A stretch of DNA of 64,000 nucleotides, taken from positions 1 through 64,000 of the forward strand of contig QPGO01000023.1 in the NCBI GenBank assembly GCA_008632985.1, read 5' to 3'. Origin of the DNA: Psammoneis japonica. Taxonomy: Eukaryota. The notes under the pieces are model-generated. The model saw nothing but the letters and a program-made list of their open reading frames with translations, was not told the DNA's origin and searched no databases. The translations under genes and the position numbers were made by a program. How positions within the stretch are numbered: position 1 is the stretch's first letter; every line of letters starts with the position of its first letter. Below are positions 1 to 37,399 of the stretch, in pieces.

Positions 1-1290
1 CCGCGGGGCGCGGTCACGAATGATGTTTGCGGCACCGCAGTAACATCCATCGCACCGACTCTCACAACAACGACAAAAAAATTTCTAAACGCATGCTTGG
101 CTGATCAACTAGTTTGTTCGCCACCAAAAACAATGATGCTGCGTTGTTGCCACACAGACAACAACTTGGCATCCATTGCTCATGCAAATCCACTCCATCC
201 AAAAGCTTCTTCTTCCAGTCAGCCCAAAGCTGCACATCCCTCGCACACTCTGTTTTGCCATCACAGCTGCAGAGAGCAGCAGCAAGTTGTTTTCTCAACT
301 GCCAGCTCATCAACAACATTCTGCCCAAAGGCATGAAATGACTTGGAGTGCTCTTGTGGTTGTTTTGTGTCCACTCCTTCTCAACCAGAATCGCCAAAGA
401 GCCAATTTTTCGCGCAGACATTTCGCTGTCACCGTGGGCGGGCACGGTCACGAATGATGTTTTATGGCACGCAGCAACAGCCATCTCACTGACACTCACA
501 ATGATGACAAAAGAACCAATCAACCAGTTTGTTTGCTGCCAAAAACAATGATGCTGTGTTGTTGCCACAAAGACAACAACTTGGCATCTTGCTCGTGCAA
601 ATCCACACTCCATCCAAAAGCTTCTTCTTCCAGTCCAAGTGCAACACACAGCTGCTGATGAGAGTCAATGCATCACGGCGACGTGTTGCAGTCTTTAAAT
701 GTCACAAAGGGCGTGACAAAAACAACCTTTTGTCTGCATGCACACTGCGTTGTGAATTCACAGCGGAGTGGTTCATCGCAGCCATCAGGCAGGAGGCCAG
801 GGGTTCGAAACCCTGAGTGGGAGTTGTCTGCAGCAACGTTGATCACTGTCGAACGCGCAAAACTCTGTGCAGTTCTGCATGTTCCTTCGCACGCACCCAC
901 ACTGTTCCGCCAAAACTGTGCAGTGTCAGCACACGTTGGCAAAGAGCCGCATGGACGCGTGACACATGGGGAGGAGTGCAATGTGCAGCCGCTGACAGAG
1001 TCAACACATCACGGCGACGTGTTGCAGCCTTTAAATGTCACAAAGGGCATGACAAAAACAACCTTTTGTCTGCATGCATGCTGCACAAGACAACAGAAGG
1101 AGCCTGAAACTGTGCATCCCACACACACACTTTGTTTTGCCATCACAGCTGCTGCGAGCAGCAGCAAAATGTTTTCTCAACTGCCAGCTCATCAAAACAA
1201 CAGTCCAGCTGAAGGTGTGAAATGACCTGGAGTGCTCTTGTGGTTGTTTGTGTCTCCACTCCTTCTCAACCAGAATCGCCAAAGAGCAAA
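1..1290. repeat. Mosaic of degenerate direct repeats (TpA-depleted)
   Basis: 1-220 recurs at ~432-637; ~650-745 recurs at ~985-1085; ~230-390 recurs at ~1110-1285. Copies differ mainly by TA/CA, CG/TG and CA/TG swaps (gcagTAac vs gcagCAac; caacTAgtt vs caacCAgtt). Confidence 0.8.
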
Positions 1291-4200: not shown

Positions 4201-4640
4201 GTGTGCTTCTTTTGTGACTTCAACCCCTTTGGCACCAAGACATCAGCCTGAGCATCTGTTTTCTTTCCACTGACACAATCATCTGACTTCTTGCTGAGCT
4301 TGCCCCCCCCCCCATTTGCCCATGAGTGTTTTTCTCAAACAACAGCGACAGCTTCGTGAAGACAATCTCAAATCTTCTCTCTCTTGCTGATGCTCCTGGA
4401 CAAAGAACATGGTCTCTTGCTCTCAGGTGGGTCATTTTCATGAACTGTTAATGCATGCCATGTTGTGCAATCTGGCTGCCAAAGCTGCTGACTCTCAGTC
4501 CATGGCACTGCAAAACACCAACCTGCATTTTTCAAATCACCCTTTCAACACAAATTGTGATCTGTTCCCCTTGTTGTTCTCTCTCCTCATTCTTGTCAAA
4601 TCAATCTTGCCAAATCTCTGCTCCTTTGAACTCATTTCTC
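1290..4640. other. TpA- and CpG-depleted relic sequence, family not identified
   Basis: Only a handful of TA dinucleotides in over 3 kb; ORFs are Cys/His-rich and nearly Tyr-free; no domain recognised. Confidence 0.55.
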
Positions 4641-5107
4641 CTCTTCTACACTCTCATTTCTCCCATTCTATCTTCCATTTCACTTCACTCCTGTGTGCAC
4701 AAGATGGACTTCGGTCCCGATTCGAAGTCGGTGCCTTTCGATCTTGGTCGGGAGTCTCGGGGTGCTCGCAAAATCACACTTTCAGCACGAAATCTGTGAC
4801 CTCCGACAGTCGTTACTTCAATGTCACTACGGCTAAGCTTTCTTTTCCACATGCTCGAGTGTACTCGCTAGCCAGTGATGATGATAAAGGTAGCACAGTC
4901 CTTTTGGGAGCTGCAAAGCAAACATCCAGACTCTTCCGTACTTTAGCAATAACATGGTCAGTTGGAAAGGCGCGCAAACAAAGCTCTTTAGTTTTACTCG
5001 AACCGAGGAATATAGTTCTATACCGCAAACATTCAAGCCTCAACGACAACGCTCGCTAAAACAGTGCAAGCATAATACGCCACCACGGTGATACGTTATG
5101 AAGGAAT

Positions 5108-6343
5108 TTATTCGTCGTCCCAGAATGGGAGCCCCATCTTTTCCAGAAATAAGAGTCCCGCAACGGACCCAACCAGATAAAGCACGAAGGATCCCATGGG
5201 AGTGACCACTGGTGCCTCAGCCTCGCCCATTAGCGAATAAAAGGTACTGAGACTCACATGGGAGTAGAGCCATTTCTCGTCTTCTTGCGTAAGGCTTTTC
5301 ACAAACGTCTTGTTACTGCATGTTCCTGCCGAGGCATCGAAACCGCTTTCGCAAGTAGTTTCGTCCAGGAGAGCATAATGGCCAAACTCATCGTCATGAC
5401 CAGTGTCGTCAAACAGGCCAAACATTTGCAACTGCCTGTGCCAAGCCATTTTCTTGTTGGGAGCGGACTCCGACGTCAACAATAAATCTGAAACATAGGT
5501 GTTAACGCCGTGTTTAGCACTCGGAAGGCCCGCTCGAATGCTCCGTGTATCGTCCACCACAGCAACCACGTAACGCTGGTAAAAGTATCCAACGCTTGCG
5601 TATACCAAATACATGTATACAACGGAAGACAACTCCCGGAGTCGCCGGTGCTTTTTGAAGATGTTGAGCATCCTGAAGCCATCATTCTCCTTGTTTTTCA
5701 GTTGTTCGAGCTCTTCTTGACGTTCATCGCTTGTCCATAGCAACGATCCTCCTGATAACCTGGAAATGAGAAATCCCATCAAGAGTGCTGTGATGTTGAT
5801 AAGATCATCGTGATTGAAGTTTCTGGTCGGCTCGGCAATAAATGTCCAAAAGAGATCGTAGCAGAACATGTGAGAGAGGCAGTACACAATCATACCAAAC
5901 ATTCCGGGAACTGAGTATCGCAAATCAAACATGATTGCAGCCCGAAGTCTCGTTGTGATGGACTTATTAGCTTTCGGGGTCTTCTTCTCTACTGATTTCG
6001 ATGTATTCTTGGATTCTGTAGAAGTACGCTTAGCATCATTTGTGCTACTCTTTGTCACAGAAACAGCTTTCTTTTCAACAAGAGCTTTCTTTTTCACGTC
6101 GCCATCGACCGCAAGGAGCTTTGCTTTTACGCAATTCTTGTGTTCGTCCTCTAGAGACAGCTCTGAAGGTTCCTTCTTTTGAGCGGAAAGGCGTGCCATA
6201 CAATACGCGAGAAGCATCTGATCATTTTCGCGAAGGGCTTTGATTTCAGATTCTTGTTTCTCATCGCTGACTTCTTGCAAAAGCCTCTTTCGAAACTTGA
6301 AATGCTTTCTCAGCGATTCTTCATTCATCACACTGGAAGGCAT
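5108..6343 (-). CDS. Hypothetical multi-pass membrane protein (411 aa)
   Basis: Uninterrupted ATG-initiated ORF with normal TA/Tyr content, a charged N-terminal region and several hydrophobic segments. Confidence 0.75.
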   Translation of the reverse strand: MPSSVMNEESLRKHFKFRKRLLQEVSDEKQESEIKALRENDQMLLAYCMARLSAQKKEPSELSLEDEHKNCVKAKLLAVDGDVKKKALVEKKAVSVTKSSTNDAKRTSTESKNTSKSVEKKTPKANKSITTRLRAAIMFDLRYSVPGMFGMIVYCLSHMFCYDLFWTFIAEPTRNFNHDDLINITALLMGFLISRLSGGSLLWTSDERQEELEQLKNKENDGFRMLNIFKKHRRLRELSSVVYMYLVYASVGYFYQRYVVAVVDDTRSIRAGLPSAKHGVNTYVSDLLLTSESAPNKKMAWHRQLQMFGLFDDTGHDDEFGHYALLDETTCESGFDASAGTCSNKTFVKSLTQEDEKWLYSHVSLSTFYSLMGEAEAPVVTPMGSFVLYLVGSVAGLLFLEKMGLPFWDDE

Positions 6344-7436
6344 GGTGTAGGTATCAAGAGAAGAAGTTGTGTTGATTACAGGTGCAACAAGAATCGATGT
6401 GTTGTCACAATAATTTTATCGGCGATTGGCGGTGAACGTTGATGATGCGTCTTGGGAGTGGCATGATCGTTGTGGTGCTGGCGGGGCGTGGGTCAGTCCG
6501 GCCGGCTCACTCCCGGCTTGGGAGGTCCGGCCGGCTTCTTTGGGATGGAATCCATGCAGTCTCGGTCAGTCATTTGGTTTGTACGGTAATCCTGTAGAAG
6601 TGTACGTGAAAATAGTCATAAATATTTTCCGTTGTGTATATCCTACGTAGGAATCTCAGTATGTTCAACGCCGGCGGGCAGGAATCACGACTCGGAAATC
6701 ACGATCCAGCACCAGGTCGAGAACCACGAAAAAACCGCGGAATCACGCCGGGTCGACGCTCGAGGTGGCGTTTTCCAGATTTCTGGAATCTGACCCGGCA
6801 CCGGTTCTCAGTACAGAATTATCGTAGAATCATGCGTAGCCGCTTACAATTGGCAAATTGAAAATGGCAGGTTAAGTCAACGGAAACACTAATCAATAAA
6901 TTTGATAGTTCCTGCGTTCCAAGAACATTTTTAAATATATAATTAAACTCTACATATAATTTTTAACGCATATGTATACATTTCGAATTTCCGTTGCGTG
7001 CACGTCTTTTTCCAGCATTGAGGGCGATGGAGATGAGTGTCACACATGCCGGTAAGGTTACCGCCGACCAAGCACGAAAGAAGATCAATCGAAGCAGTCG
7101 GTCAGCGTGGCCACAGTGATGGGCGTGGACCAAAACTGTGGTGCCGAATGAATGCACCAAAACTTCAGTGACACACCACGCTCGCCAATGTTAGTTCCCG
7201 CAAGTTCTGAAATAAACTGCCGCAAAAGCACACAACATTTACACTCCTGTGTGTGAACCATCACACAGAGCAAATCATGATGATCAGAACGAAACAGCAG
7301 CTTCGCCATGCTTCTCTCGCAACCTCGCCGCTGCAGTCGGGCTGCGCAGCAAGTTCCTGCCAAGAACCATCATGGCATCTCCAGTGCTCCTCATTTTCAA
7401 TCTTACACTCGAACGGATGACTTGTCCTGACTCAAT

Positions 7437-8372
7437 GTGCAGGCTTTCATGCAGACTGCACAACCTGGGAGGCAGCGAAGACGAGTGGCTCGAGCAAAGC
7501 ACCACACATCTGGAACAGGGTGCAGAAGCAGCAATTCGAAACTCACCCATGCCATCATTGAAAACGTTGAATTGCACGGTGCCACAGTGCTTTGTGGAGC
7601 CAAGTCCCAATGCGATTTTGAAGGAGGAAGTGAATCGTCTGTGGCATTTTGCTCCATCGCAGCTTCTCATCTCCTTCACTCCAATCCACAAGACGTCACG
7701 CTTGACATTGTTGAATCATTGATCAACCCGGCCCTCCTTGATCTTGCGATTGCCTGGGGGGTGAAAAGACATGGGTGGGCATGCCGTGGTCAATCGACTG
7801 TTGAAGAACTGCGGCCGAGTGATTTCTTCTACGAAGTTGATGGTCTCGAACGCGGGCCACTTGTTCAAAGTGGAACTGGGATTGGGCATTTCGGGAAAGT
7901 GCCCAAAGAGAGGGTGGCTGTTGCTGTTAGAAGTGCAAATGCATCCGATGCTGTGCTGTGCTTTGGGTGCAGTCAAAACAAGTGGTGTGTGATTGACAGC
8001 TGTGGCGAGAGCCGTTCACAGCCCAAGGCGGCACGCATTGTCAAGTGCCAGTCGACTGTGGCCCTTGCACTGGCGTTGATGTGTAAATTTCCAAAGCATG
8101 CAGCGGACACTTGGCAGACTCACATGGACAACTGTTTTGAAGCCACTCCCATTGCAGTGGCTGAGGAATGGGTTGAAACAACAGTGACGACGGCCCGCCG
8201 CAGTGGCACTGTGGATGCAGCAAAGCATTCACCAAACCTTGGTCCACTCCGATGGATCGACGGAAGAAAAGTGAACCCCTTTCATCCTGATGCGGACGAC
8301 ACCAAAGCGTCGTCACGAGAGCCTCGCCCCAAAGCACCAGCTGCCAGTGGCAGTCATGAAGCAGCTGGCTAG
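7437..8372 (+). pseudogene. Hypermutated ORF, possibly a herpes-tegument-like (VTD/peptidase C76-like) cysteine protease
   Basis: KSQCDFEGGSESSVAFCSIAAS...LLDLAIAWG...KWCVIDSCG loosely resembles the Q..C / LD...G / Y.FDSH pattern; lies in a TpA-depleted block. Confidence 0.3.
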
Positions 8373-11190
8373 AAACCCCAAGAGCCAAGCGTCCACGGAG
8401 GTGAATGAATGCAGTTCAACAGGTCCCCACTCCAATGAGAATGATGCAGCACCTGCAACCTTCACCCCTCTTCAAGGAAATGACCAACCTGCCACAAACA
8501 CCCAGAGCCAATTGCCCATGAACGCCAACAAATCCTTGTCTAAAGCGACCCATTCCAACGGGCACAATTCAATGACCAAGCCACCTGCAACCTTGATCCC
8601 TTCTCAAGGCAACAGACAAGCAGCAGAAAAGTTGGACTCCTCCTCCAAGACAAAGCCTGGCAATGACAAAGAGTGCGACGGGGAAGCATTCCGAAACAGC
8701 ACAGATGGCGCGACTGGAGCTGGAGCACCCCCCTTGAGAGTGTTCGAGATGGACATGTTCCAAGACCCAACGGCGCATTTTGTCATGGTGGACCCTGCAG
8801 TTTGTGCTTCCGGGATTGCACATGATCAAACAGCAATTGAGCAACACTTTGATTTGTGCCGCAAAGAAGAAGAGTTGCGAGTTCAAGAAGAACGTGAGGG
8901 ACCACAGGAAGGAGAAGAAGATGATCGCAGCATGAGCTGCTCGAGACCGCGTTCTGAAATCAAGCTCACTTGCCCTGTGACTCAACAGGTTGTCTCCAAC
9001 CTTCTCATTCCTGGCTGCTTTGTCAAAAAGCAGATTGTCAGTCTGGCTGAGGCTAATGTTCTGCCCATGTCAGCAGAGGAAAGGTCTGAGTGGAATGACC
9101 GGCATCACAAGAAGAAAGAAAATGATCGCCAACGGGCTGTGAGGGAACGCAAGGAAAAGGAGGCCCGCCGTCAAATGGCTCAGAACCAAGAGGAAGCTTG
9201 GGAATGCAGAGCAAAAGAGGAAGAAGCGGCTGTCAATGAGATGCCTTCTCTGAATGCCGCAGCTGTCTCACATGAAATGGTGCGACATGAAAGAAGCAAT
9301 GACCAGCTCCTGTCGGACTTGGACCTTGGTGTTTCCCTGGCCTTGTGCAAGAACACCACGCAGCAGCAGTCCAGCGGCAGCACGGACTGTCATTGTCAGG
9401 CAGCATGCTGCAAGATGAGGTTGACATCGGATGCCACCTTGTCGCGCACTCGCTGCACAAGAATGGCGTGCAAAAGATGTGTTGAGTTTGAAGTTTCCGA
9501 CTTTGCAGCAACACGCTCAAAGGAACTTCACAGAGTCTGTGCCAAGTGCATCATGCAGACAGTTGATGTGATGCCCAGAGAAGGATCAATGGGCGACACA
9601 AGAGCGTTCATCCTGAGGGAGTGCCTCCAGCCCTGCATTCGCAACATTGCTCAAGGAGTCATTGCATTCCAAGACTTGCAGGAAAAAGTGTGGGCTGACA
9701 ATGAATTTGGGCCAGCCACACTTGAGCTTGAGCACAACATTCAAAGGCTGCTTGGAGAAAGAAGCAGATTGGAAATTCAGCTGCGGCACTCCAAACAGCT
9801 TGAAGATGAGAAACGAGCCATCAAAGAGTGGGGGATTCGAACTGAAGTTGTTCAAGCCCAGCATGATGAAATCTTGGGTGGGCCGACACCACACAACAAA
9901 GGCAAAGAACCAGTCCACACCCAGGAAGTCTTCCGGACAATGCATCGTCTTGAAACTGCACAAAGAAATTTGACTGATGCAAAGGCACAACTTGCCAATG
10001 CGAAACGAAGAGCAGCTGCTTGAGTCATTGATGATCCAACGAGGAGCAGCGCACCCACTGCGGGTGGGCCAGCCTTTTCTTTGGCCGACGTTGAGGAAGT
10101 CGCGGCATTGTTGAGGAAAGCATGCACCATTCGCAGCAGTTGGGCTGATCGGAAAAGGACAAATGGACGCAACCATGCATCTAAAGCAACTGGCTCCACT
10201 GTCAAGAGTCGCAGCAAAGCAAAAGAAGCATCTCTCAGTGAGATTTTCAAAGCGAAAAAGCCAATCGGTGCTGCCGACGATAAGAGCAAGAAGAATGCCG
10301 GTGCTCCTGCCGTTTCAACACCTCTGTTTGCAGAGACATTTGTGCCAGAAGAACGGAGCAGCGAAGGTGGTCAGCTGAAGATTGAGACAGCAGCAGGTGA
10401 AAGAGCCGCGTCAACGTTGCTCGGCATTCACCACAGTGCAGGCATTTCTTCAACGAAACCATTGTTCAGTCCGATGTCTCTGACGTTGCAAGAAGACCCC
10501 AACTTTCTCACTGCGATTCAAAGCGTCAAGCCTTGCACCTTGCTTCCACTCAAGCTTGTGCATCCTCCGACTCGCATGAAGGCGGAACTGGATTTGTTGC
10601 AGAATGTGTTGGCACAGAATCTGCCTGCATCGCAACGTAAATGCGATGCCAAATGTCCCATGAAGTGTCACATCAAAACAGCTCAAAAGGAAGCGCTTTG
10701 GAGGATGAAATTGAAAAACTTGAAGCATCAGTGAAAAAGTCAACAGAGGCAGCGGAAGCAGAAGCGGAGCAAACGCGCCGAAAAGTGGAGCGGCAAGCTC
10801 GTCATGCAAAAGTGGAATCTGCTGAACGTGTCCGTGAGGAAGCTCGATTGAAGCAAGAAGAAGCGGCTCTCAAGGAAGCCAAGCTGTTGCACAAACGGCA
10901 TGCTTGTGAAGACGGAGCTGCTGCCAAGGCATTTGCTCAAGCTGTCGGCAAATCAAATGGCACCAAGGCCTTTGGTGGCAAGGGCAGCTTGAGAACGTGC
11001 AAACTGTGCAAGTGCGGTCCGATCGAGAACAAAGCTTGCGATGACCTCAAGTGTCACAACAATTCCTCAAACATGTGCAAGGGATTGGCTGTTGTGGTGA
11101 CTTGCAAGCTGAATCATTGTCCACACTGTGGTTGGTTTGCTTCCGATTGGGAGTCATGGCCGCACTGGGATGGCATTTTCGGTCCTCACC
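8290..11190 (+). pseudogene. Hypermutated U-box E3 ligase-like gene with Zn-finger and coiled-coil regions
   Basis: FQDPTAHFVMVDPAVCASGIAHDQTAIEQHF...LTCPVTQQVVSNLLIP is a U-box with His at the usual Tyr positions. Also a Cys cluster (CKRC...HRVCAKC) and a C-terminal CKLCKCGPIENKACDDL..H...NHCPHCGWF..W..WPHWDG motif. Broken by a stop at 10021-10023 and a frameshift near 10650. Confidence 0.65.
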
Positions 11191-12300
11191 AATCAAGCGC
11201 ATGTCATTTTGCTCATCTCATTGTTTTGAGAAATCTTGCTGTAGTTGCCTGCAAGTTCTCTGCACTCGTTCCATGTCAGACTTGAAGGTCAAGCATGATG
11301 ACAGATGGCATTGCTCGACTTTTTTTAAACAAGGACGAACAAGGCTGCCGTCGCTGGAGCGAAAGAGTTTTTGACAAGCACACTCATGCTTTCACCAGCA
11401 AAACCAAGGAACGTCTGCACAGACAATGAAATGCCGACTTGGTCTCTTTAGATTGTGCTGCATTTATCAAGGCACATCTTGACTGCTTGCATGTGGCACA
11501 GTGTGAACAACGCAACCTCCACTCTGCCTGATGCTGCACTCACAAATCATCATGAAACGACGAACGCCATTTTTTCATTTTCAATTTTTTTGGAAGATCC
11601 GGCCGTGCCGTGCGGACTGACTCCAACGGCACAAATTTAATGCACATGGGACTGTTTGTGACAAAAACTGTGAGTCAGCCGGGGCAGGGCTGTGGCAGTT
11701 GGTCACGCATGTTTGGGTTTGATGCAGCCGTGCAACTGGCCATGCCAGCACCTTGCAGGCAGAGCTGTGATGTTGATTGCACCATGACTTTTGGACCAAC
11801 TGTGTTCTTTTAAATGCCTGAAGAAATCTTCCATTTTGGCTGATGGACAGCGAGTGCACTTTTCAGAACAGTGTTTTGCAACTTCTCAGGTGGGTGTTGT
11901 CCACAGGACAGGGCTGGGCAACGGGAGCAGAAAAATGTCTTAGAGAGAGTGCGTGCATGCTGCAAAAAGAAAACACATGAGAGCGCAGTCTGGGGCGCAG
12001 CACCGGCGCTCACATCAGGAGCACAGGCACTTGCACAGCATTGTGGCAAGCAGCGCGCACGTGGAAACGGCCATTTCTTGCATTTCTCCCACCACCACCA
12101 CAAACATCATCAACACGGAGCACCTCCAACAATGGCTGTCACCGCTGAAAACGAGCATTGTGGATGTTGTGTTGATGCCATTGGGCCTGCTGTTGTCAAC
12201 CCAAAAACTGACTCACAATGAAAACAAATGAGAATGTTCTCTTGAGCCGAAATGTGTTTCTTCAATCTCACATTCTCAATGAGTGAATCAAATCGCTCCA

Positions 12301-12627
12301 GACGCGTTCCAGCTCTTGGTGGGACCTCATGCCACTGCACTGTGACATCAACAGTTTTTTGGATTGCGTTGCATGTCGCGCACGTGCATTTCTGCATGTT
12401 GCACTCTACGAAATTGTTTCATGCTCCCTGTTTTGCGAAGCTGAAGGCTTTCTGTTTTCAACATTCATGCTCCAAGCATGAAGGAGGAGATGTGTTCATA
12501 AAGTTGCCTCTTTTTCTGTTGGCAATCATTTGCATTTTCATTGCAGTGCAAATTTGCTGCGGAGCTTGCACGTGGAATTCTGTGGGCCCAATGTCACATG
12601 GAGTCCCACCTGGGACTGGAGCCTGTC
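12301..12627. mobile_element. MITE family A, copy 1 (~25-bp TIRs, 4-bp TSD TCCA)
   Basis: Begins GACGCGTTCCAGCTCTTGGTGGGAC and ends GTCCCACCTGGGACTGGAGCCTGTC; TCCA at 12297-12300 and 12628-12631. Confidence 0.8.
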
Positions 12628-12774
12628 TCCACTGCATTTGACGGAATCTGTTGATTCAATGTGTTTTTTGGTTTTCTCAACTTCTTGTTCTCCTCCAATC
12701 TTTGTCCATGTTTCTGCAGGAAAATGTCACATCATGCTGGGCGGCTCAAGTTGACACCACTTCAAATGGGGCCG

Positions 12775-13976
12775 GACGTGTCCCAGGTCCAGCAGGTGGG
12801 ACCTCGCACTGCTGAACTGTGACATCAACAGTTTTTTGAATCACGTCGTATGTCGTGCACATAGATTTCCACATGATTTTTTGACATTTTGTGTCATTTT
12901 ACGGTGCACTTAGACCCGTCGCACTCATGGCGGAGGGGTGCAATCAGGGGTGTAAAAACACACGTTGCACGTTTTTACACCCCTCAAAAAAAAATTGCAG
13001 CCAACAAACAGGCCACCAGAGGCATGCATTTTTTTCCTGCAAAAAATTCTGCGAGCCTGCAATTTTTCGTGCGAAAACAGACTCATCATCGTCCATGACG
13101 GCAGATGATGACATCAGAATTGTCGAACAACAATGGCAACCAACAATCAACAATGAACGTCAGTCAATGAGAGATGTGAAAAATTGTTGCTGGGGAGCTG
13201 TTGTGATGTGTTTGTGAAAGAAAGAACGGCAAAAAATGATGAGATTGAAGTCAACGGAGAACAAAATGATGGCAACTCCACACCTTTTCAGAAGAAAAAC
13301 ACGTCATGGGGTTGCTGACACCTTGGATGTGGATGCAGCAGTGACACACAATGTCAATCACGTCATTGCACATCGACTGGGCTTGTCAGAACAGTGTTTT
13401 GACATGTGTGAGGTCGCAGCGGAGCCGCCAAACGCCGTGGTGGTTTGATGCAGTCAATGGCATGTTCAACCTTGCGCACAGATGAGTTGATTAAAAATGG
13501 ACACATGGCGTTGTTCCTGATTGAGCATCAACATTTTTTCAGGAGCATGTGTTCAATGCACACATCATTGCTCGCAGAATTGCAGATGCCAAGTTTCGCA
13601 CTCTTGCACTCGTGCAAAAAATGGGTGCAATTTTGGTGTGTAAATTCGCGCGATGCGCGTTTTCACACCCCCAAATTACACCCCGAATTACACCCCAATT
13701 TCCATGAGCACGACGGGTCTCATTGAGCGATCCATCCAACAACTTTTGACATTTTTTGTCACAGCGCCATTCTGCAATGTCTCAAGAATCGCATGGGGCA
13801 GGCGCACTTGCAAAAACGTCGAGTGGTGAGAGGCACAATTGCACCACAAACTTGGCCGTTTGTTTGATGTTGAAGACAAATGTGCCCATCAATTAAATTC
13901 TTGTGCTACGGAGCTTGCACGCAGAATTCTGCGGGCCCAATGTCACACAGAGTCCCACCCAGGGCTGGAACACGTC
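12775..13976. mobile_element. MITE family A, copy 2, carrying a nested insertion
   Basis: Same TIRs (GACGTGTCCCAGG...GTGGGAC / GTCCCACCCAGGGCTGGAACACGTC); imperfect TSD GCCG/GGCG; internal sequence collinear with copy 3 once 12913-13719 is removed. Confidence 0.75.
12913..13719. mobile_element. Non-autonomous TIR element B (PIF/Harbinger-like by TSD), nested in MITE A
   Basis: TIR GACCCGTCGCACTCATGG / CCATGAGCACGACGGGTC, subterminal GGGGTGTAA / TTACACCCC repeats, 3-bp TSD TTA (12910-12912) / TCA (13720-13722). Confidence 0.7.
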
Positions 13977-13980
13977 GGCG

Positions 13981-14130
13981 GTTCAAGCGGGTGCCACATC
14001 ACATGAGGCACGAGGCAGCTCAAGCGGATGCCAACACCTTGCTGGGCGGCTCAAGTGGACACCTGCACCTCACTGGGTGACTCAAGTGGATGCCAACACC
14101 TTGCTGGGTGACTCAAGTGGATGCCAACAT
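13981..14130. repeat. 31-bp minisatellite (CTCAAGTGGATGCCAACACCTTGCTGGGTGA)
   Basis: CTCAAG anchors at 14019, 14050, 14081 and 14112; a related unit at ~12735-12774 lies on the other side of the MITE. Confidence 0.75.
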
Positions 14131-14976
14131 TGAATGTTGTGTGGAGTGGTCCAAGGGTGAGGAGCGTTCTTCATTTTAAAATCCACAATCTGCCACTTTT
14201 GGGAAAGTCCCGACACAAAGGGCAGACGAGGTTGCTCTTGTCTCTGATGATTGCGAGCAACTGTGCCAAGGCAGCTGACTGCAGTGGCACCTTGGCAATT
14301 TTTTTCTGCAAGACGGCCCATGAGAGCCAAGGGGTTGCTCCCCGGCGAGACTGAGAGTGGCACCTCCAAGGAAGGGGGTGCCACTCGACGTGCTGCAACC
14401 TGAACCTCAATCACACAGGGTTTGCCTGCCCTCAAAGGTGGTGATTGGTTGTTTTCAAGGAATGTGGCAGGACAGAAGGACAAAGCAGCTAGACTGGATT
14501 GATCTGCAGCACAGAGCGGTTGTCGAAAAGCTTGGATGGTCATTTGCAGCAGCGCTTCCAGATGCCTCTTCTCCTGCAGACGCTTGTCCATTTTCTTGTG
14601 CTTGCATGCCTTCTTACAAAGTCAATCTTGCATGACACCATTGACCAATCCAACATCTGAAAGACGTTGGGCACGGGAAAAAGCAGTGCAGGTCAAACCA
14701 TGCTGCTTCTCGCGGTTGGACAAATCCACGACAAAATGGGGCTTGATGGTTTGGCCTTGAGCTTTCCAAATGGTCATTGCCCAGCAAAGCTTCAAGGGCA
14801 ACACAGTGTGAGTGTGTTCATCACAGCCCACATCATCTTGCTTTTGAGTGCACACGGCTGCAGTCACAGGGTGAATTGGCACCCAACCTCGGCAACTGTC
14901 GTCGTCGGGAAAAAATGATCCTCCGCCACAGTCTCTGCTGAAGTCAACCCACACAAACTTTGGAAGAGATGGAGCC

Positions 14977-15550
14977 NNNNNNNNNNNNNNNNNNNNNNNN
15001 NNNNNNNNNNNNNNNNNNNNNNNNNNNNNNNNNNNNNNNNNNNNNNNNNNNNNNNNNNNNNNNNNNNNNNNNNNNNNNNNNNNNNNNNNNNNNNNNNNNN
15101 NNNNNNNNNNNNNNNNNNNNNNNNNNNNNNNNNNNNNNNNNNNNNNNNNNNNNNNNNNNNNNNNNNNNNNNNNNNNNNNNNNNNNNNNNNNNNNNNNNNN
15201 NNNNNNNNNNNNNNNNNNNNNNNNNNNNNNNNNNNNNNNNNNNNNNNNNNNNNNNNNNNNNNNNNNNNNNNNNNNNNNNNNNNNNNNNNNNNNNNNNNNN
15301 NNNNNNNNNNNNNNNNNNNNNNNNNNNNNNNNNNNNNNNNNNNNNNNNNNNNNNNNNNNNNNNNNNNNNNNNNNNNNNNNNNNNNNNNNNNNNNNNNNNN
15401 NNNNNNNNNNNNNNNNNNNNNNNNNNNNNNNNNNNNNNNNNNNNNNNNNNNNNNNNNNNNNNNNNNNNNNNNNNNNNNNNNNNNNNNNNNNNNNNNNNNN
15501 NNNNNNNNNNNNNNNNNNNNNNNNNNNNNNNNNNNNNNNNNNNNNNNNNN
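14977..15550. other. Assembly gap (N run) inside the Helitron helicase
   Basis: Run of n characters. Confidence 0.99.
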
Positions 15551-18500
15551 TTGACACCTTTGATTTCACGCAATCTCTGGTCAATGCAGCGAAGCTCTCT
15601 TTGACACAGCATCGAGAACTCAAGAATCAAAAGCTTGAGATTCGCAAACCCATCTTGAGCTTCAGCAAGATTTTTGTTCGTGAGAGGACGACAACATTTG
15701 CCAGAGAGGGGCATTCCCAGTCCTTCTTGGTGAGAGTGAACCGCAGATCTGCCAATGACCATCGCAGCCTTGCCTGTTGCAGCCACAAGAGCTCAGCTGC
15801 TTGTTGGAAGTCCACAGTCCCAGAGAGCAGCAGTGACAGCATCAACAGCAAATGATTTTCCTGCACCTCCCACCCCAACAAGGAGAACACACTGTCCCTC
15901 ACTTTCTCCAACAAGAGCACTTGCAATTGCATCATGAGCCAGACACTGTCATTCATTGAGCAAGTTGAAAGAAACTTGACTCCTTGCAGCTCGATCGACG
16001 GGGTCAGACATGAGATGATCACACTTTTGCTCCACTTCCTCGTCCCATCCATCACATTCTGGACAGCCATGCTTGAGTTCTGAAAAATCATGATCCTCTG
16101 ACCATTTGAGATTGCTTCCAGAAAGAGCTGGCACATCGTCCATTTGCGTGGCATGCCCAACATCCATCCAAGAGTCTTGGCTTGCATCCGTTGGACCAGA
16201 GTCCGAGTTGTCACCCATTGGCGCATCAACGTTGTCATTCACGCCATTCCTGTTGGGCAAGCGCAAGCTCGATTTAATCTCGCGTTGAAGGAAACCAGGA
16301 ATTTGTCGACCTTGTCACATCAGAAACAGAGCATGTTGGCTCCAAGCATGAATGATGTCATCATTGGATGCGTTGGCGCCACCCCAAGCAGATTCAAATG
16401 TGCCACTCCATGGTCAATGCTTGGTCAATGAGTGCTTGCAGCACTTGACAAAGTTGCGACCACCAGGAGCACTTGGAACTCGAGGTGCAAAAACAGCTGC
16501 CGTGTTTGGTTTCTGGTGGGGGCGGATTTTCTTCTTGTGCTCTCCGGACTTGCCAACGTAGAATCTGGTGGCAAATTCTTGTGGAGCAAGGTCTCTGAGT
16601 CCTGGCTCAAATGCTGCAAAAACTGAACAATCAGCCCAGGCTTCTTGGTTGAGGCATGCAGCATGTGCATCAACGACCGTCGGCATTGCAGCAGAATCCG
16701 CTCCTGCATCGGCGCCAACGTCTCCATCAGAAGGATCATCCGACTCCTCCAGGTCAACTTGCCTGGAGGCATTTTTGAGATTGACAGTGACAAAGGTGTG
16801 GGAGCAAGAGACAAGAGGCAAACTTAAAATGAGATGGCACGTCTCCTGTTTGGAAACCATTCGCTCGCCTGTTTGGGGTGACCATTTTGATTCATTCAAA
16901 GAATGAACAACACACTGTGAGTGGAAATGCAAAGTCACACAAGGATCAAATCAAAACTAGACACACCCAAAAGCTTGGCCATTGTGCTCTTCAACACTGC
17001 CTGTGCACTGCATCCATCATCGATTTTCTGCTCCACTGTTTTGCGAACCATTGCGGTCATTCGCATGGACATCATGCTGGATTCAGACTTGGAGACATGC
17101 TTGCTCATGTGCCAAAAACCTCACCGGCACATCTGCAACAAGTCGGAAATCAATGTTGGCTCTCCAAACCTCGAACACTGGGATGCAATGACTGTTGATC
17201 CACTTGTCGTTGCGTGCCGATGCCATTTCCATTCTTGAGACTTTTTGGGTCTCTCCAGCTTTGTTTTTGACAAGCTTCTCTAGAACAACCAGACGAGAAA
17301 TTCTTGAAAGATGCAAAGGATGTCCAAAGCAACAGTCCAAAATGTGTTCATCTGCTTTTGCCTTGTCGCACTTGGACTTGTTGCGGTCACAGCAGCCGCC
17401 GGGCTTGCATGCATGCCATTCCACCGTGTTGCACAGATTGCAGCAGTTGCCAGTGCGGTCATCTCTTGTCATCTCCAGCACATCTTGAGGCCTGTCATTG
17501 CTTGGGTGCACTCCGCCATCCACCCCGGGACAAAACTTGGTGGACTCCAGCCGCTCGTCGGATGCAGCATCTTCTGGAGGGCTGGGGTGAAACGCAGAGA
17601 CAAGAAAATCATCAAAGGTGACAACCATGTCTTGTGCCTCCTTTCCATCTCTGACAGCTTGCAGCATCTGTTCAAAAGAAAGCTCCTCGTCATCTTTGCA
17701 TTCAAACTCCTCTTCACACATGTCCAGTTCACAATCCTCCTTGGCAAAATCATCATCCTCATCCAGCGGACCTTGTTGGCACAGTTTCAAAGCAGCCAAT
17801 CTTCCTTCCAAAACAACCTGTGACAGGTCTGATGGCCCCGGGTCAGCCTCCAGTCGCAAACATCCGTGAACATGAGCAGCACCGCGGGCTTGGCATTCGA
17901 TCCAAAACCAAGTCCAGCTTGTTTTCATGCCATTCTTTCCAAAGAAGCTCTTCATCATCAAATTGACCCGTTCTTGAAAGAAGGCATCAACAATGTGAGG
18001 GTCATCTCGGACAGCCTTGCAATGACAACTGGCTTTCTCTTCTTCTGAAAACTCTTCACAGTCAGAGTTGCAAACCAACAAGGCACTGAGGTCCGCCCAG
18101 TGGTTGTCGGTGGCTGAAAGAGCAAACCACAATGTGGGCATTCCGCACTGGTCTGTCAGAGCCTTGAGCTCCTTCTTCTTCTTGCAGAAATGTGAGTCAC
18201 CACCTGGGACATTCGCGTTGAACTTTTGCATGTTGGAAACAATTTCTTTGAAGCGCGGCCCGTTCTCTTGCACTGCATGCTTCAGCTCTTCCTTGGTGAG
18301 CTGTGCATCTTCTGGGCACTTTTTTCGCAGGCACATTTTCTTTTGTTCCTGGTGACGATGTCGAGCAGCAGCAGAGCATTCTCGGCCCAATGCATCCACC
18401 GATTGTGGCGTGCAAACAGATGCACCCACTCTCCCTCCTCCTTGTTGTCAAAACAGGTGTGCTGAAGCAAGTGCTTGTTTGCCTCCACCATGGCCACGTT

Positions 18501-19192
18501 GATGCGGCGATCGTTGTGCATGACATCCCCATCGCCACGCGGGAAGAGAGTGGAAAAGGCCAGGCTTTGAAGCTGAGGAAAGGTGCAGTCATTGATGGGC
18601 TGGCCGTTGTTTCCAATCTCTTGGACGACGGAAGCAGGATCAAATTGATTGCGGAGAGTCTTTGAAATTTCGGCGTGCTGCTGACCTGGATGAGGGACAG
18701 ATGGCAGATGCCCAGATCGACATCCTCGCCCTCCTGTCCGCTTGCCCCACCTTGTTCTGGGCCACTGGCAGCAGCGTCTTGGTCCTCACTTGCATCACCT
18801 GCCAGCTCACTCTCATCTGAAATGGAAGAAATGGAGTCTGCCACTGAACCATCCTCTGGAAGAAGCAAAAGATTTTCCAGGTCAATGTCGACATCATGAT
18901 GGCCCAGATGATTTTCCTTCAGCCAGACAAGCCATTCTGTGACATTGTCGCAGCGAACCTGAAAGTCTTTGCATCCATTTGGTGTCCTTTGGTTTGGCTT
19001 TCAGAGGACAAAAACTGGCAAGTCAGAAACCTTGAGTGCGGCAGGCTCGCAATGACTTCATCTGTGTCCTTTTCAAGATTCACAACGGACCCTTTGTGCC
19101 CAACTTGCCCGGACTGAAGACGACAGCACTTCATGACAGTGTGAGCACAAGCAATGAGCATCTCTTCAACCTCAGATGGCTTGGGCAGGTGT

Positions 19193-19581
19193 GACGCATT
19201 CCAGGTCTAGGTGGGACCTCACACCACTGAACTGTGACATCGACAGTTTTTTGAATCGCGTCGCATGTCGCGCACATGCATTTCTACATGATTTTGGCAA
19301 AATTTTGTGTCATTTTATGGTGCAATTGTCAGGCAATCCATTCAACAACTTTTAACATTTTTTTCTTCTGCGCCATTCTCGAGTGTCTTAAGAATGGCAC
19401 AGGGCAGGCGCATCGTCCTAAACTTCGAGTACGAACAGGGATGTGTGCACCACAAACTTGGCCGTTTGTTTTGTGACGAAGACAAACACATCCATTGACC
19501 AGAGTACGAACTGCAGAGCTTGCACGTGGAATTCTGCGGGGCAAATGTCACAAAAAGTCCCACCTGGGACTGGAACCCGTC
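19193..19581. mobile_element. MITE family A, copy 3 (4-bp TSD GTGT), inserted in the Helitron ORF
   Basis: TIRs GACGCATTCCAGGTCTAGGTGGGAC / GTCCCACCTGGGACTGGAACCCGTC; GTGT at 19189-19192 and 19582-19585. Removing it restores the frame KGRPAH-LPKPSEVEEMLIA. Confidence 0.9.
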
Positions 19582-20603
19582 GTGTGCAGGACGTCCCTTG
19601 GCACAGATGTCCATGTCCTTTGCTGCAGAGAGACGACTCAAGCCATGCTCCTTGACATCCTTGGAGAACAAGCGAGGCACTGCTGCAGGTCTGACTTGTT
19701 CACGGTCATGTTGAACCAGCGCTTCTTGCAAGTGGCACACCGCATCATTTCTGTCTTTGAAACTCCGTCCACAAATTCATCTTGACAAGCTTTCACATGT
19801 GGGCCAGTCAAACAAGAGTGAGAACAATTGAAGAGCAAAGTGACAACAATCAACATCATGTCTCTTACATCGGGGTGGTCTTCCAGATTGACACCTGGAT
19901 GCCGGCCATCCCTGCAAGCTTCAAAACATTCATCAAGGGAAGAGGGTGGAACTGGAGGGTCATCAGAAGAGGACAAAGCAGATGACAATGATGAGGATGA
20001 GGATGAGGAGGAAGGGTCATCGTCCATCGATTGCCTTTTTTGTCTGTTTGCTTGTTTCGTTGCTTGGCGGTTTTGCAGTCTTGCTTCTGCCATTGACGTT
20101 CCTTTGAAAAATCTGGCTTCTGCACTTGATTGGCATTGTTGAGCCCTTGCAGTTTCTTGCCATTCTTGAGTTGACAGGTTTTCTTGTGCTTGTGCTCAAG
20201 ATTGCTCCTTCCTTCCATTCGCAACTCTGTGATTGTTGGTGGAGGAATCAATGGCAGCTGGCAGATCTGGATGAGCAAGAACAGATGAAGCAGAGTCATG
20301 AGCAAAAAAATTCGACAAAGTGGGACCAACAAAATGGAAACACTTGCGACTCAAAGTGCGCTGTCATTTCACCTCTCTGTCGGAAGAATCGTCAATGGCA
20401 CCAGCCACTTGTCAAGTTCTGTGTCGAAACTTGGGATCAGTGATGTTTGAAACCTCCAAATCTTGCATTGATGAAATCTCAATGTGATTGACGGGAAGAG
20501 CAAACTCGGGATGTCTGCTGAGATGCCGGGTGTCACACTCTCGCTTTTGCTGCTTGACGTCTTTTGCGGCTTGATCCTCCGCTCAGCACTCAGCACGTCT
20601 CTT

Positions 20604-21170
20604 TCAGTTTCGTTCTCTTCTGCACTGTGCAGAGGTTGAAAACAAATCGGGGGTTCCAAATGCTGCATCCTGCGATCCATGAGAATGGCGCTCATGTGGC
20701 AATCCAAAATGTGTGTGTGGCGGCATGTGATGGGGAGCAGGAGGTGGACGAAAGCAAGGAGCCGACATCCAATGATTGTGGGGAGGAGACAAAAAAGCTT
20801 GAGCCGGAGCATGCTGGCATCCAAAATTGGGCACACCCGGCAGCATCATGAAAGCATCACAGGGGCGACAGTTCCTCACATCGAGAGAGCCATGAACGAC
20901 AGGAAGAGAAAAAGCAACACCATTTTGAATGCACTTGCTCCACTCATCAATCAAAGAAGCTTGAGATTTGGCAGAATGGGTCGATGCGGGCGATGCAGGT
21001 TCTGGAGCTTCCGGCGGAGTGTCGGGTCCATCAGAAAAGAGTGCCTTCTCAACAAGCTCTTGCTCCTTTGGATCTGTTGCAGCTTGTCCCACCAGACGAC
21101 GAGTGGTCACAGGAAAGGAAGCAAAAGAAAAGAGGAGGACAAGTGCAGATGCAATGGGTGCAATCTTCAT
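20604..21170 (-). pseudogene. Tyr-free ORF remnant with a signal-peptide-like start, upstream of the Helitron (possible cargo)
   Basis: MKIAPIASALVLLFSFASF... followed by a Pro/Ala-rich linker; same strand as RepHel; TpA-depleted. Confidence 0.3.
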
Positions 21171-21588
21171 CGTGTCGAAAGCGATGTCGAGACGAGACGA
21201 TGAGTTTTGTGTTTGATGGGATTTTGTTTTCCATGGGAAAAGTGAGTGGTGAGACCTCGTTTCAATCAAGAGCCAGCAGGCACGAAAATTGCCAGGTGCG
21301 GCTGTGCGTGGTTGAGTGTTCATTGAAATGTGCGCAGAATCCTGCTGAAATCAAGCTGAGCTCCATTTTGCCGACAGCTGCTCTGTTTTGCCTGCAGTGT
21401 CATGTTTCACCACATCCAATCTGAAGATGTTTTGAGAAGCGCTTCGGGGCGACTCTGTTCGGACCGTTGAAAAGAAATTTTTTTGTTCAGATTCGAAAAT
21501 TTGTTTCGGGGTGTTCCTCACTTTTTTGAATGGTTGCATGTGTGCTCACAAAAATCACAAGAAAATTTTATGTTGTGCAAAAGCCTCA

Positions 21589-22776
21589 GGGACACACGGC
21601 ATTTTGTCGCCAATTGCGACATTCCCACAAATGAATTGGATGATTTGTCGTGAAAAACGCCCTTTGAGACAAATTTCAACCGTTGGCGATAAACAAGACA
21701 AAATCATCATTTAATTGGCGATGGCGTGTCCCAAACACACACGTTGCATCAACTGCAGTGCCACATGATGAATTTAACTTTCGGCGAAGACTGCACTTGT
21801 TAATTGGTGTTTTGGCGATTTTGTCGTACGTGCGACAAATTTTGTCGGAAACGACAAATTTTGTCGGATACGACAAATTTTGTCGGATGTACGACAAATT
21901 TTGTCGGACGTACGACAAATTTTGTCGTATCCGACAAACCCCGACAAACCCCGACAAGCCCCGACAAACCCCGACAAGCCCCGACAAACCCCGACAAACC
22001 CCGACAACGTACGACAAACGCCGACAAGAGCCGACAAGAGCCGACAAACGCCGACAGACGGACGTTTGCGACACGCCGACAACGCAACGCTCCCCAACAT
22101 TCAGAAGTGCCCAGTCGCACTGACAAAAGGTGCAGTGCAGCAACACACACCGGTGCATTCCGTTGCACTGTGTAGAAGTGTTGTTGTCCCGGTATTGACG
22201 AGAGTATGGAGACCGCCGAGAGCGGCATGATCGTCGCTTTGCATCATCGCGCAAAAGAGACATGCCGGTAGTGTCAACGGAGACGTTAGCGGTTAGCGTG
22301 TGCGGGGGGCGTGGGTGTTTCGTTCGTGTCGTGACGTGTCGTGACGTGTCGTGTCGTGTCGTGTCTTGTCGTGTCGTGTCGTGTCTTGTCGTGTCGTGTC
22401 GTGTCGTGTCTTGTCGTGTCGTGTCGTGTCGTGTCGTGTCGTGTCGTGTCTTGTCGTGTCGTGTCGTGTCGTGTCGTGTCTTGTCGTATGCCGACAAATA
22501 CGACAAATTTTGTCGTATACGACAAATTTTGTCGGATGAATTTTCGTCGATGACATCGATCGCCAAATTCTGTTAATTACCCCACTTATTGAAACGACAT
22601 CGCCAAAGTTCAGGTTGGTTATAAATGACATTAATCATTTTATAACTTAATTAAACAATGTTTCTGTCCCGTTTATCGCCAACCCGGACATTTTGTCGCA
22701 ATTCGCGTCTTTTCGCGACAAATCATCAATTCATTTAAGAAAATGTCGCCAAATGCGACAAAATGCCGTGTGTCCC
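21589..22776. mobile_element. Foldback-like non-autonomous element with ~130-bp imperfect TIRs and internal CGACA/TGTCG arrays
   Basis: GGGACACACGGCATTTTGTCGC at 21589 and its reverse complement ending at 22776. CGACAAATTTTGTCG near-palindromes and CCCCGACAAA repeats at 21830-22080; (GTGTC)n/TTGTC array at 22325-22490. Confidence 0.8.
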
Positions 22777-23260
22777 AGAGACCGACATAAACACATGTTC
22801 CATGTAGACCACGTACCGGTAGATTGTGCACCGGCGGAAATCCACCGCATGTCAACTCACTCAGTGGTAATTCTACGTACAGGCTCTCCGGAGCCTGGGG
22901 GTTAGGGCCTCGGTGAGCGCCGGTTACCGCGTACATCAGTACCAAAACCTACGCAGGCCCTTTCTACTTAATGCAGGACATCATTCAATTATAGACGATG
23001 AAAGAACATTTATTGATGACTTTTCAGTCACGATCAAAAAATGTCCGACAGTTTCACGTGACCCCTGACACTTAAGTGATCCGATGACGCGACGTTAAAT
23101 GTTGTGAGACAACAAAAGCAGCGGCTTGACCGGCTTTTAGCCTTTCTTCTGGTACATTTTTCACTGGGGGTCTACACGGGAGGATGGAAAAAATTGAAAA
23201 CAAAAAATGCAGGGGCTATAGAGTTACAAAAACACAAAAAACACTCGACCTCCTTCAACC

Positions 23261-31907: not shown

Positions 31908-32399
31908 TACAATAACAGTAGCAGTATGGGTGGCTCTTTGACCTCCTGTATGCCACAACACGGTGTCAAGCCTAACATTAAACCCGAACTACTACGGCTT
32001 CAAACAATCTCGTATCTTTGTGGAGTTGATGACTCATCAAAGTATTGCGCGCACGATACGAGTTTGATCGACTAAATCAAAATTTTGAAATTTTTGTCAA
32101 TAAAAGTGATACTAGTTTATGAACATCTAAAAACTTGAATAAATTATGACTCAAACATTCATACATTGCTGTTATTATCTAATTAGCGATTCAACGGTAC
32201 AATAAATTCGATACTGCGAAAAAAGCACCAAATTGAAGAACAGGAAGTGATACCGGGGTGACAAGCGATTTCTCCTGCAGACGTATTTGTTCTTTGATAA
32301 CATCCAACAAGCTGATGCCCTGTTGTTAAAAGGGTAACGAACGTTATTGGCTCTCTCACCCAGATCAGCACGCTCTTATTCAGTTGGAAACTGTGAAAA

Positions 32400-37084: not shown

Positions 37085-37399
37085 GATTTTTAACAAAGAG
37101 TAGAGTGTGTGAAGGCCTTATTTTCAAAACTTCATCAAGACTAGAGGAGTCTTGGTGGTGATGAGAACGAACAACTTTGTTGATTTTAGGCGTTGTTCAG
37201 AAGGTCGACGAGGATAAAGGGTGAATAAGACGGATCGATCGACTGTGCCATTGTGTGTTGCTGCGATGCCCATACGATGCGATGCTTGCTCTGCTGGTTT
37301 TTTCTGCGCCGGGCCTTTTTGGGTGTGCGAGCCGCACTGGGCACAGCGCGCGCACAACTCGCAAAATGTCGGCGCGGCAGATTTTGACCGAGACCCCTG

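Follow-up and report, generated by a model that had tools for sequence, protein, structure and literature searches.

TpA-poor inserts in the nuclear genome of the diatom Psammoneis japonica support a TpA->TpG/CpA hypermutation of a Helitron and other inserted DNA

Mettrop et al. (bioRxiv 10.64898/2026.01.13.699255, April 2026) described that viral DNA integrated in the genome of the chlorarachniophyte Bigelowiella natans is hypermutated specifically at TpA. According to the main text of this preprint, two integrated viral regions mutated at about 1000 times the background rate in mutation-accumulation lines, 230 of 231 changes being A->G or T->C and all AT->GC changes falling on TpA, while the process was active in some lines only. 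In the same account, windows poor in TpA and rich in CpA+TpG form 124 clusters in the genome, DDE and reverse-transcriptase domains are overrepresented among TpA-poor genes, and an adenine-deamination defence is proposed with ADAT2 named as a candidate. Before April 2026, invading DNA was not known from any organism to undergo an A:T->G:C hypermutation specific to TpA, and this one chlorarachniophyte is the subject of the only report. Here we describe a stretch of DNA from the diatom Psammoneis japonica (GenBank assembly GCA_008632985.1, contig QPGO01000023.1, positions 1 to 64,000; this whole stretch of 64,000 nt is the window to which all coordinates refer), in which five blocks, one of them holding the remnant of a Helitron transposon, are nearly devoid of TpA (TA). 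These blocks are dead inserted DNA in the diatom nuclear genome, consisting of the Helitron, a family resembling miniature inverted-repeat transposable elements (MITE-like), and open reading frames (ORFs) without a known family. After insertion they underwent near-saturating TpA transitions in place, in a strand-symmetric, site-independent, insert-confined, and progressive manner, accompanied by a slower CpG->TpG/CpA decay. An earlier sequence-only reading of this stretch had been aware of no described system of this kind, which is superseded by the report on B. natans (bioRxiv 10.64898/2026.01.13.699255).

Observed/expected ratios (o/e) of TA were computed in 1-kb windows over the 64-kb stretch, and the positions of all 1438 TA were mapped. 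Within the five blocks, TA o/e per 1-kb window was 0.00-0.14 compared to 0.42-0.90 in the host stretches, while TG/CA o/e reached 1.5-2.0 compared to 0.95-1.37 elsewhere. Based on the TA positions, the blocks span 1-4640, 7053-21568, 37274/37693-43663, 48196-53322, and 63056-64000, in agreement within tens of bases with the five TA-poor blocks of the sequence-only reading, and together they make up 30.6 kb of the 64 kb (48% of the stretch). They contain 94 TA in 30,625 nt (one per 326 nt), while 1341 were counted in 32,376 nt of host DNA, a rate that would predict about 1268 for the blocks. The edges are steps, with 5.6 TA per 100 nt in the first outer 100 nt and 0.25 in the first inner 100 nt (mean of eight edges), and the neighboring host DNA is normal, so that the process is restricted to the inserts with edges resolved within 100 nt. 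Host genes with Pfam domains revealed a TA o/e of 0.56-0.68.

As in the main text on B. natans, the change is TpA->TpG/CpA only, is limited to foreign inserts, and appears as TpA-poor, CpA+TpG-rich 1-kb windows. With o/e values <= 0.14, all full block windows pass the TpA cut-off of that preprint and, with values of 1.53-2.0 apart from window 10001-11000 (1.46) and the one with an assembly gap, also its CpA+TpG cut-off, though the o/e formulas may differ slightly in both cases. The host is a diatom (Stramenopila) instead of a chlorarachniophyte (Rhizaria), and the targets are a Helitron and a high-copy repeat family instead of integrated viruses. While erosion is saturated here (TA o/e 0.03-0.08 over the blocks), a Rho of 0.45 is given for the giant-virus insert in the main text on B. 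natans, and the affected share is 48% of this stretch compared to 124 clusters stated there for a genome of about 95 Mb (a size derived from 85 Mb callable, given there as 90%). CpG decay accompanies the TpA loss here, while CpG does not appear in the main text of the preprint. Finally, the rate is reported there as directly measured, while the evidence for continuing change is indirect here and consists of TA<->CA/TG differences between the stretch and a public sequencing run and of a half-eroded young insert. In full-text literature searches, whose coverage leaves out most subscription journals, no report of TpA hypermutation in diatoms was found; as far as found, this is the first diatom case, at saturation and on ordinary transposons.

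Comparison of the ten strand-symmetric dinucleotide classes between blocks and host DNA revealed large shifts for TA (0.08x), CG (0.38x), and CA/TG (1.52x), while the remaining seven stayed at 0.87-1.22x host with GC highest, among them TC/GA at 0.87x, CC/GG at 0.98x, and AA/TT at 1.09x; the dinucleotide AT was not depleted. Over whole blocks, o/e values were 1.50-1.83 for TG, 1.59-1.96 for CA, and 0.12-0.61 for CG, the latter compared to 0.95-1.08 in host DNA. The number of pyrimidine-purine steps per base was nearly the same (0.2417 in blocks, 0.2394 in host), and their make-up shifted from host to blocks from 17.3% to 1.3% for TA, from 23.2% to 9.4% for CG, and from 59.5% to 89.3% for TG+CA. 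An equal total with a changed make-up is the trace expected of transitions at TA and CG. GC content amounted to 49.0% in blocks and 47.2% in host DNA. TAA and TAG occurred at 2.8 and 1.6 per kb (both strands) in the blocks compared to 19.8 and 17.3 in the host, and due to this near absence long ORFs run through all frames of the blocks. Tyr is absent from 109 of 122 block ORFs of at least 100 aa, among them two stop-to-stop ORFs of 582 aa (8275-10020) and 454 aa (17086-18447), which correspond to two frames without Tyr that the sequence-only reading had pointed out.

The direction of the change was deduced from the Helitron in the main block, a composite of dead inserts at 7053-21568 (TA o/e 0.04-0.08, TG/CA 1.5-1.65, CpG 0.56-0.61). 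Its Rep/helicase coding remnant lies at 14493-19191 on the minus strand and was recognized by Pfam and tblastn: it revealed DUF6570 and Helitron_like_N (PF14214, 2.5e-22), and 42 long homologues align in tblastn from 19191 down to 14493, spanning an assembly gap of 574 N (14977-15550). The remnant agrees with the Helitron arrangement of Rep (Helitron_like_N) followed by a helicase on one long ORF, though the Pfam domain of the helicase part stayed under the threshold (UvrD_C_2, E = 0.16). An HMMER search against 1.84 billion representative proteins resulted in 952 relatives of this ORF, 151 of which were examined. None of the 151 is free of Tyr (median Tyr 3.44%, median Cys 1.94%), while the copy in P. 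japonica has 0% Tyr and 6.2% Cys. Among 1232 codon columns of the element covered by at least 10 homologues, 19 have a Tyr majority and none of these is kept, being replaced by His (CAY) in seven, Cys (TGY) in six, Phe in five, and Val in one; for other residues conserved to at least 50%, 304 of 381 columns are kept (Fisher p = 3.8e-13). A change from Tyr to Cys corresponds to A->G on the sense strand and one from Tyr to His to T->C, and 13 of the 14 non-Phe replacements are Cys or His. The homologues thus carry Tyr instead of Cys or His at these positions, in line with the direction assumed beforehand.

A further set of first-position A->G replacements, independent of Tyr (Ile->Val, Thr->Ala, Asn->Asp, Ser->Gly, Met->Val, and Lys->Glu), confirmed the TpA specificity that had been proposed: T precedes 11 of 13 of them at a baseline of 379/1232 (binomial p = 9.4e-5), and A is the last base in four of the five codons with Leu->Pro or Val->Ala (CCA or GCA). 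Conserved Arg is kept at 17 of 27 positions and lost to Cys (4), Trp (2), His (1), stop (1), Lys (1), and Ile (1), the losses to Cys, Trp, His, and stop being the mark of CpG decay. Two processes therefore supply the TG/CA excess, and only the TpA process explains the loss of Tyr. The sequence-only reading had rightly kept the TpA process apart from 5-methylcytosine (5mC) decay, but CpG->TpG/CpA decay (C->T) also adds to the excess. Based on these substitutions, the view is supported that the TA loss is mutational, TpA->TpG/CpA, arising by A:T->G:C at TpA on either strand.

Both strands are affected alike. The blocks contain 3191 TG and 3421 CA, and six conserved Tyr became Cys while seven became His. 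The order of TG and CA along the blocks showed a lag-1 autocorrelation of -0.03 to +0.02, and between 20-site bins the TG share varied with a standard deviation of 0.112-0.124, the binomial value being 0.112. As there is no autocorrelation, sites were resolved singly on either strand and not in strand-coordinated tracts; processive one-strand deaminase tracts are ruled out at 20 sites or more, the power being limited by dilution with native TG/CA sites. The few surviving TA are skewed in their context: TTAA accounts for 18/92 in blocks and 65/1337 in host DNA (odds ratio 4.8), A stands at -2 (either strand) in 12/92 and 642/1337, respectively, and survivors favor T at -2 together with A at +1. 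This skew may reflect a flanking-base rule of the mutator, with TTA as a poor substrate, or else new TA that have arisen in T/A runs.

The process looks progressive and acts in situ, after copying. Repeat pairs inside the blocks (1668 aligned nt) revealed 168 transitions, 75 transversions, and 36 CA:TG double differences, while a control, a host segmental duplication (45205-46158 with its partner at 53518-54477, 85% identity, TA normal in both copies), showed 50 transitions, 43 transversions, and one CA:TG double over 931 aligned nt (p = 2e-6 against the blocks). Two copies are left with such a double when each has resolved the same ancestral TA, or CG, on its own. A tandem duplication in the third block (39039-39565/39729-40270, c. 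530 nt, 78% identity) harbored 13 CA:TG doubles and nine CG-involving changes, but no TA. In three copies of the high-copy MITE-like family one site reads TG, CA, and TA, the last being the only state one transition away from both others, and 11 of the 13 TA-involving differences between paralogues fall in this young family. A copy of it nested in the Helitron region (19193-19582) has a TA o/e of 0.30 and a CpG o/e of 0.92, while the surrounding Helitron reaches 0.02 and 0.51; as the nested insert is only half eroded, it is younger and the process is progressive. Assuming a host-like starting composition, the losses in block 7053-21568 amount to about 91% for TA and about 34% for CpG, so that TpA erosion is several times faster than methylated-CpG decay. 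The host duplication of c. 950 nt and 85% identity is not eroded, which does not support duplication alone as the trigger. The part at 7053-11600 is present at host-level contig depth, though copies diverged through the process itself would escape this count.

These depths and a check of the assembled bases were obtained from a public sequencing run in the form of contigs (X1), which contains 61% of the sampled words of 5000-14900; no RNA run containing the stretch was listed. Its contigs span 5000-11591 at c. 98-99% identity and are likewise TA-poor. Differences to the block amount to 0.9-2.2% (12/1293, 13/580, 11/720, and 34/1925 letters) compared to 16/1200 in the neighboring host gene, and one contig crosses the left block edge (6892-8184, 12 differences). 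Since contigs of X1 carry the same TA-poor bases, an assembly error is not the cause, and the assembled bases proposed beforehand for checking against raw reads are supported in this way; we count X1 as read-level support and not as an independent strain. Among the differences listed between the stretch and X1 at 6940-8526, 21 of 22 are transitions compared to 9 of 16 in the host gene, and differences between the two sequences include TA<->CA, CG<->TG/CA, and TG<->CA changes. Just outside the left edge, TA at 6940 and 6971 read CA in X1, and the eroded zone of the other allele may reach c. 100 nt further to the left.

In fungi, repeat-induced point mutation (RIP) changes C to T at CpA, giving rise to TpA. 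The process described here resembles RIP in being an insert-confined transition hypermutation at one dinucleotide that kills transposons and diversifies copies, but unlike RIP it destroys TpA, raises GC (49.0% versus 47.2%), and leaves a host duplication of c. 950 nt untouched. The sequence-only reading had also set it apart from RIP, and indeed TpA is lost without an AT-rich product. RIP and APOBEC-type C->T editing were rejected as causes of the TA loss. Decay driven by 5mC shares with our findings the CpG o/e of 0.12-0.61 and the Arg losses and runs as a second process in the same blocks, though more slowly than the TpA process (c. 34% of CpG versus c. 91% of TA lost in block 7053-21568, host-like start assumed). 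As cause of the TA loss it was rejected, as it can neither remove TpA nor turn Tyr into Cys or His. GC-biased gene conversion was discarded because AT and AA/TT are not depleted, and selection against TA because conserved residues are destroyed. RNA hyper-editing of the ADAR type via reverse transcription does not fit either, the element being a DNA transposon (Helitron) with both strands equally affected and no runs.

While the TpA->TpG/CpA process as described above is highly probable in our view, the chemistry behind it is less certain, and given the process, adenine deamination appears to be about an even call; both taken together form the best explanation we can offer, held with slightly less than even confidence. 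Adenine in DNA would be deaminated enzymatically to hypoxanthine, which pairs with C, with a change of the A on one strand yielding TpG and a change of the A on the opposite strand yielding CpA. As agent, a TadA/ADAT2-3-like polynucleotide adenosine deaminase working in the nucleus is likely; it would be drawn to silenced chromatin, in which cytosine is probably methylated, and the outcome would be the removal of every Tyr codon and of all TAA/TAG stops, the killing of encoded proteins, and the diversification of copies. The natural tRNA substrate of TadA/ADAT2-3 is A34 after U33, and amphioxus ADAT2 reportedly deaminates DNA. Adenine deamination is favored because of the near-pure transitions, the U/T-before-A preference of the TadA/ADAT class, and the reported DNA activity of ADAT2; the near absence of transversions fits hypoxanthine:C pairing. 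ADAR hyper-editing and TadA/ADAT2-3 likewise produce A->G with U/T preferred before the edited A, as stated in the main text of the preprint on B. natans (bioRxiv 10.64898/2026.01.13.699255). While polynucleotide adenosine deaminases act on RNA, or on DNA in assays, the changes found here are fixed in a chromosomal DNA transposon, where they affect both strands and almost all sites. Diatom transposons are cytosine-methylated and many diatoms have a RID-like DNMT4, according to PMC9998398.

The main rival to adenine deamination is a chemistry of thymine, which we consider rather unlikely, though it deserves to be taken seriously. A TET/JBP-type dioxygenase would mark the T of the palindromic TpA in silenced inserts as 5-hydroxymethyluracil (5hmU), perhaps 5-formyluracil, and mispairing with G or faulty repair would give T->C, so that the hypermutation would be a by-product of a silencing mark, like 5mC decay. 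Oxidised thymines are expected to yield transversions besides T->C, while 230 of 231 changes in B. natans were transitions and 13 of 14 non-Phe Tyr replacements in the Helitron are Cys or His. On the other hand, TpA is self-complementary like CpG and a maintained symmetric thymine mark is conceivable, the CpG decay indicates that base modification is present in the same blocks, and strand symmetry and step edges are compatible with a thymine mark on a chromatin domain. The sections of PMC11572971 drawn on here describe that 5hmU made by TET/JBP homologues in dinoflagellates is enriched on transposable elements and silences them, T being replaced preferentially in TA and TC in Crypthecodinium cohnii (C. 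cohnii). This resembles our case as a transposon-directed system with a TA preference in a lineage of the SAR (stramenopiles, alveolates, and Rhizaria) supergroup, but the TC preference is not mirrored here, and no mutational consequence is reported in those sections (PMC11572971). With TC/GA at 0.87x and CC/GG at 0.98x host, there is no C. cohnii-like TA-plus-TC specificity, while a TA-only mark would still be compatible. No 5hmU data for diatoms were found in the literature searched.

Several points weigh against TpA hypermutation by adenine deamination as the preferred explanation. Its enzyme, whether an adenine deaminase or one modifying a base, and its role in defence are what we infer from the pattern, and deamination of A on one strand cannot be separated by sequence from modification of T on the other; a transposon-directed modification of thymine exists in dinoflagellates (according to the same sections of PMC11572971). 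Of the A:T->G:C mutator acting on silenced repeats that the sequence-only reading had suggested, the TpA transitions in inserts are thus borne out, while enzyme and defence stay conjectural. Furthermore, the protein-based polarisation comes from one element, the Helitron, and five of its 19 Tyr columns read Phe, which falls outside both TpA->TpG/CpA and CpG decay and may reflect a lineage-specific Phe. As mobile DNA, only the Helitron and the repeat family were identified, and the remaining blocks could be viral or other foreign DNA. The earlier characterization of the process as transposon-restricted thus stands for these two, while the other blocks lack a recognisable domain and the Copia element named in that reading was not found. 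Finally, X1 could represent the second haplotype of the sample behind the assembly and is in this case not fully independent.

Helitrons transpose via single-stranded DNA, and it could be imagined that this DNA, or the RNA or cDNA of a retroelement, was deaminated in transit before or during insertion by APOBEC- or ADAR-like enzymes, the copies arriving free of TA. The edges match the insert ends within 100 nt, and according to the main text on B. natans, deaminases of the ADAR and ADAT type prefer U before the edited A (bioRxiv 10.64898/2026.01.13.699255), both as this scenario would have it. We nevertheless judge it improbable. Erosion is 91-97% complete, which would go well beyond editing in a single passage, while only half of the erosion has taken place in the nested younger copy, whose family still has paralogues that differ by TA versus TG/CA. 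Allelic differences at TA sites occur within the block as well as directly beyond its edge, and both strands are equally affected without runs, unlike what a single-stranded intermediate would leave. Moreover, the changes in B. natans are described in the main text as arising in integrated DNA during culture (bioRxiv 10.64898/2026.01.13.699255).

An error-prone repair, which we regard as very improbable, would start from T:G mismatches caused by 5mC deamination that recruit non-canonical mismatch repair, with a Pol eta-like polymerase erring at WA and leaving A->G near methylated CpG. Hot spots of Pol eta are WA with A->G prevailing, as known from somatic hypermutation, and CpG decay and TA loss indeed share the same blocks. 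However, AA/TT stands at 1.09x host, so that the base at -1 is strictly T, and transversions are rare at the polarised sites. In block 7053-21568 about 91% of TA but about one third of CpG are lost, and the nested insert has a TA o/e of 0.30 at a CpG o/e of 0.92; TA is lost ahead of CpG, and its loss thus need not be preceded by CpG events. That no mutation process acted at all, the blocks being an assembly or base-calling artefact, foreign DNA natively free of TA, or the product of selection against TA, could draw on the extreme composition and on the fact that most blocks lack recognisable homologues, but is hardly credible as contigs of X1 with c. 1% divergence are TA-poor too and bridge an edge, as conserved Tyr turned into Cys/His and Arg into Cys/Trp/His/stop ruin the proteins, unlike selection or native composition, as copies differ by CA:TG doubles, and as a misread strand would probably yield mixed calls and not a clean consensus.

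With P. japonica, TpA hypermutation is not a curiosity of one species but concerns at least two lineages of the SAR supergroup, so it is ancient or convergent, and its targets include ordinary transposons (here a Helitron and a MITE-like family) besides integrated viruses, which suggests a widespread way of disabling invading DNA. The question of enzyme and targeting moves to a group with many genomes, methylomes, and working CRISPR genetics, where phylogenetic profiling and knock-outs are practical. For annotation, the erosion is of importance since it strips Tyr codons and TAA/TAG stops, makes long spurious ORFs, and hides old repeats from homology- or k-mer-based methods. As a possibility that we put forward tentatively and hold to be less likely than its opposite, diatoms might run an active, chromatin-targeted editing that removes TpA from all silenced inserts irrespective of copy number and more quickly than 5mC decays, homologous to that of Bigelowiella and part of an ancient SAR-wide (or wider) defence by adenine deamination or a TpA-directed base mark. 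If true, random resolution into TpG or CpA would let copies diverge fast, block recombination between them, and hide old families from repeat finders, and a defence would have been overlooked in one of the most studied algal groups.

Apart from the Helitron, the main block harbors four consecutive long Tyr-poor ORFs without a known family at 7431-11282 on the plus strand, a run covered in X1 at a contig depth of 50-73 compared to 46-61 over the host gene. The 582-aa ORF among them (8275-10020) carries a degenerate, split U-box (Pfam 21.8 bits at a cut-off of 21.4), which reads GIAHD at the position of GQTYER in plant PUB12, and a PDB sequence search resulted in the U-box only (7xed_C, E = 0.86). 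No homologue was found among 8000 scored candidates, no relative in viral contigs, and no PHROG. With about one TGA per 40 codons per frame, this ORF is far too long for chance; the Helitron may have picked it up as a piece of a gene, or it may represent a foreign gene of separate origin. For the 313-aa ORF at 7431-8369, recognition in the Atlas stayed under a useful level. Copies of the very high-copy MITE-like family lie at 12281-14300 and are partly eroded (0.74 TA per 100 nt); in X1, the summed contig depth of this family reaches 86,000, with 2947 contig pieces in total over the 9.9-kb stretch compared with X1. To the right of the nested copy, a nearly TA-free stretch with minus-strand ORFs without a known family (19583-21568, one TA in 1986 nt) ends at the right block edge.

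Pfam searches were run with 68 block ORFs at E <= 0.01 and 136 at E <= 1 (overlapping lists, 204 queries in total) and revealed only Helitron_like_N, DUF6570, and chance-level matches, so that the other four blocks lack a recognisable domain even at E <= 1. Regarding Copia, none of the 204 queries matched a Pfam reverse transcriptase, integrase, or protease, and no flanking direct repeats (pairs of long terminal repeats) were found, though heavy erosion could mask such features. A scan of metagenomes for Helitron relatives resulted in two loci, neither extreme in TA, and thus in no second case. One of them (contig L001, 1-5694, Helitron 35% identical) is mildly depleted, with a TA o/e of 0.34-0.42 over 5 kb and 0.87 in the last 694 nt, and has kept its Tyr; the other (L002) has a TA o/e of 0.68.

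As for the remaining blocks, the one at 1-4640 (TA o/e 0.03, CpG 0.27) contains internal repeats without a recognisable domain and continues beyond the start of the stretch, while the one at 63056-64000 (TA o/e 0.06) continues beyond its end. The block at 37274-43663 (TA o/e 0.03, CpG 0.16) holds the internal tandem duplication mentioned above. In the block at 48196-53322 (TA o/e 0.04, CpG 0.12), an 86-nt unit is present in three tandem copies at 51519-51776, the first two being 98% identical. This block is flanked by the copies of the host duplication, one of which overlaps the 3' part of a GT10 fucosyltransferase gene (54066-55655, minus strand). The assignment of the host DNA to a diatom comes from one gene, an aldo-keto reductase (30807-31961, minus strand), for which 6351 relatives were obtained at E <= 1e-30; of the best 120, 17 have organism names and all of these are diatoms (64-76% identity). 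Directly to the right of the main block, the arms of an inverted repeat (21585-21716/22649-22780, 78% identity) lie on either side of an array resembling (TCGTG)n (22284-22518), and this whole structure (21585-22780) is un-eroded, with normal TA and a CpG o/e of 1.59.

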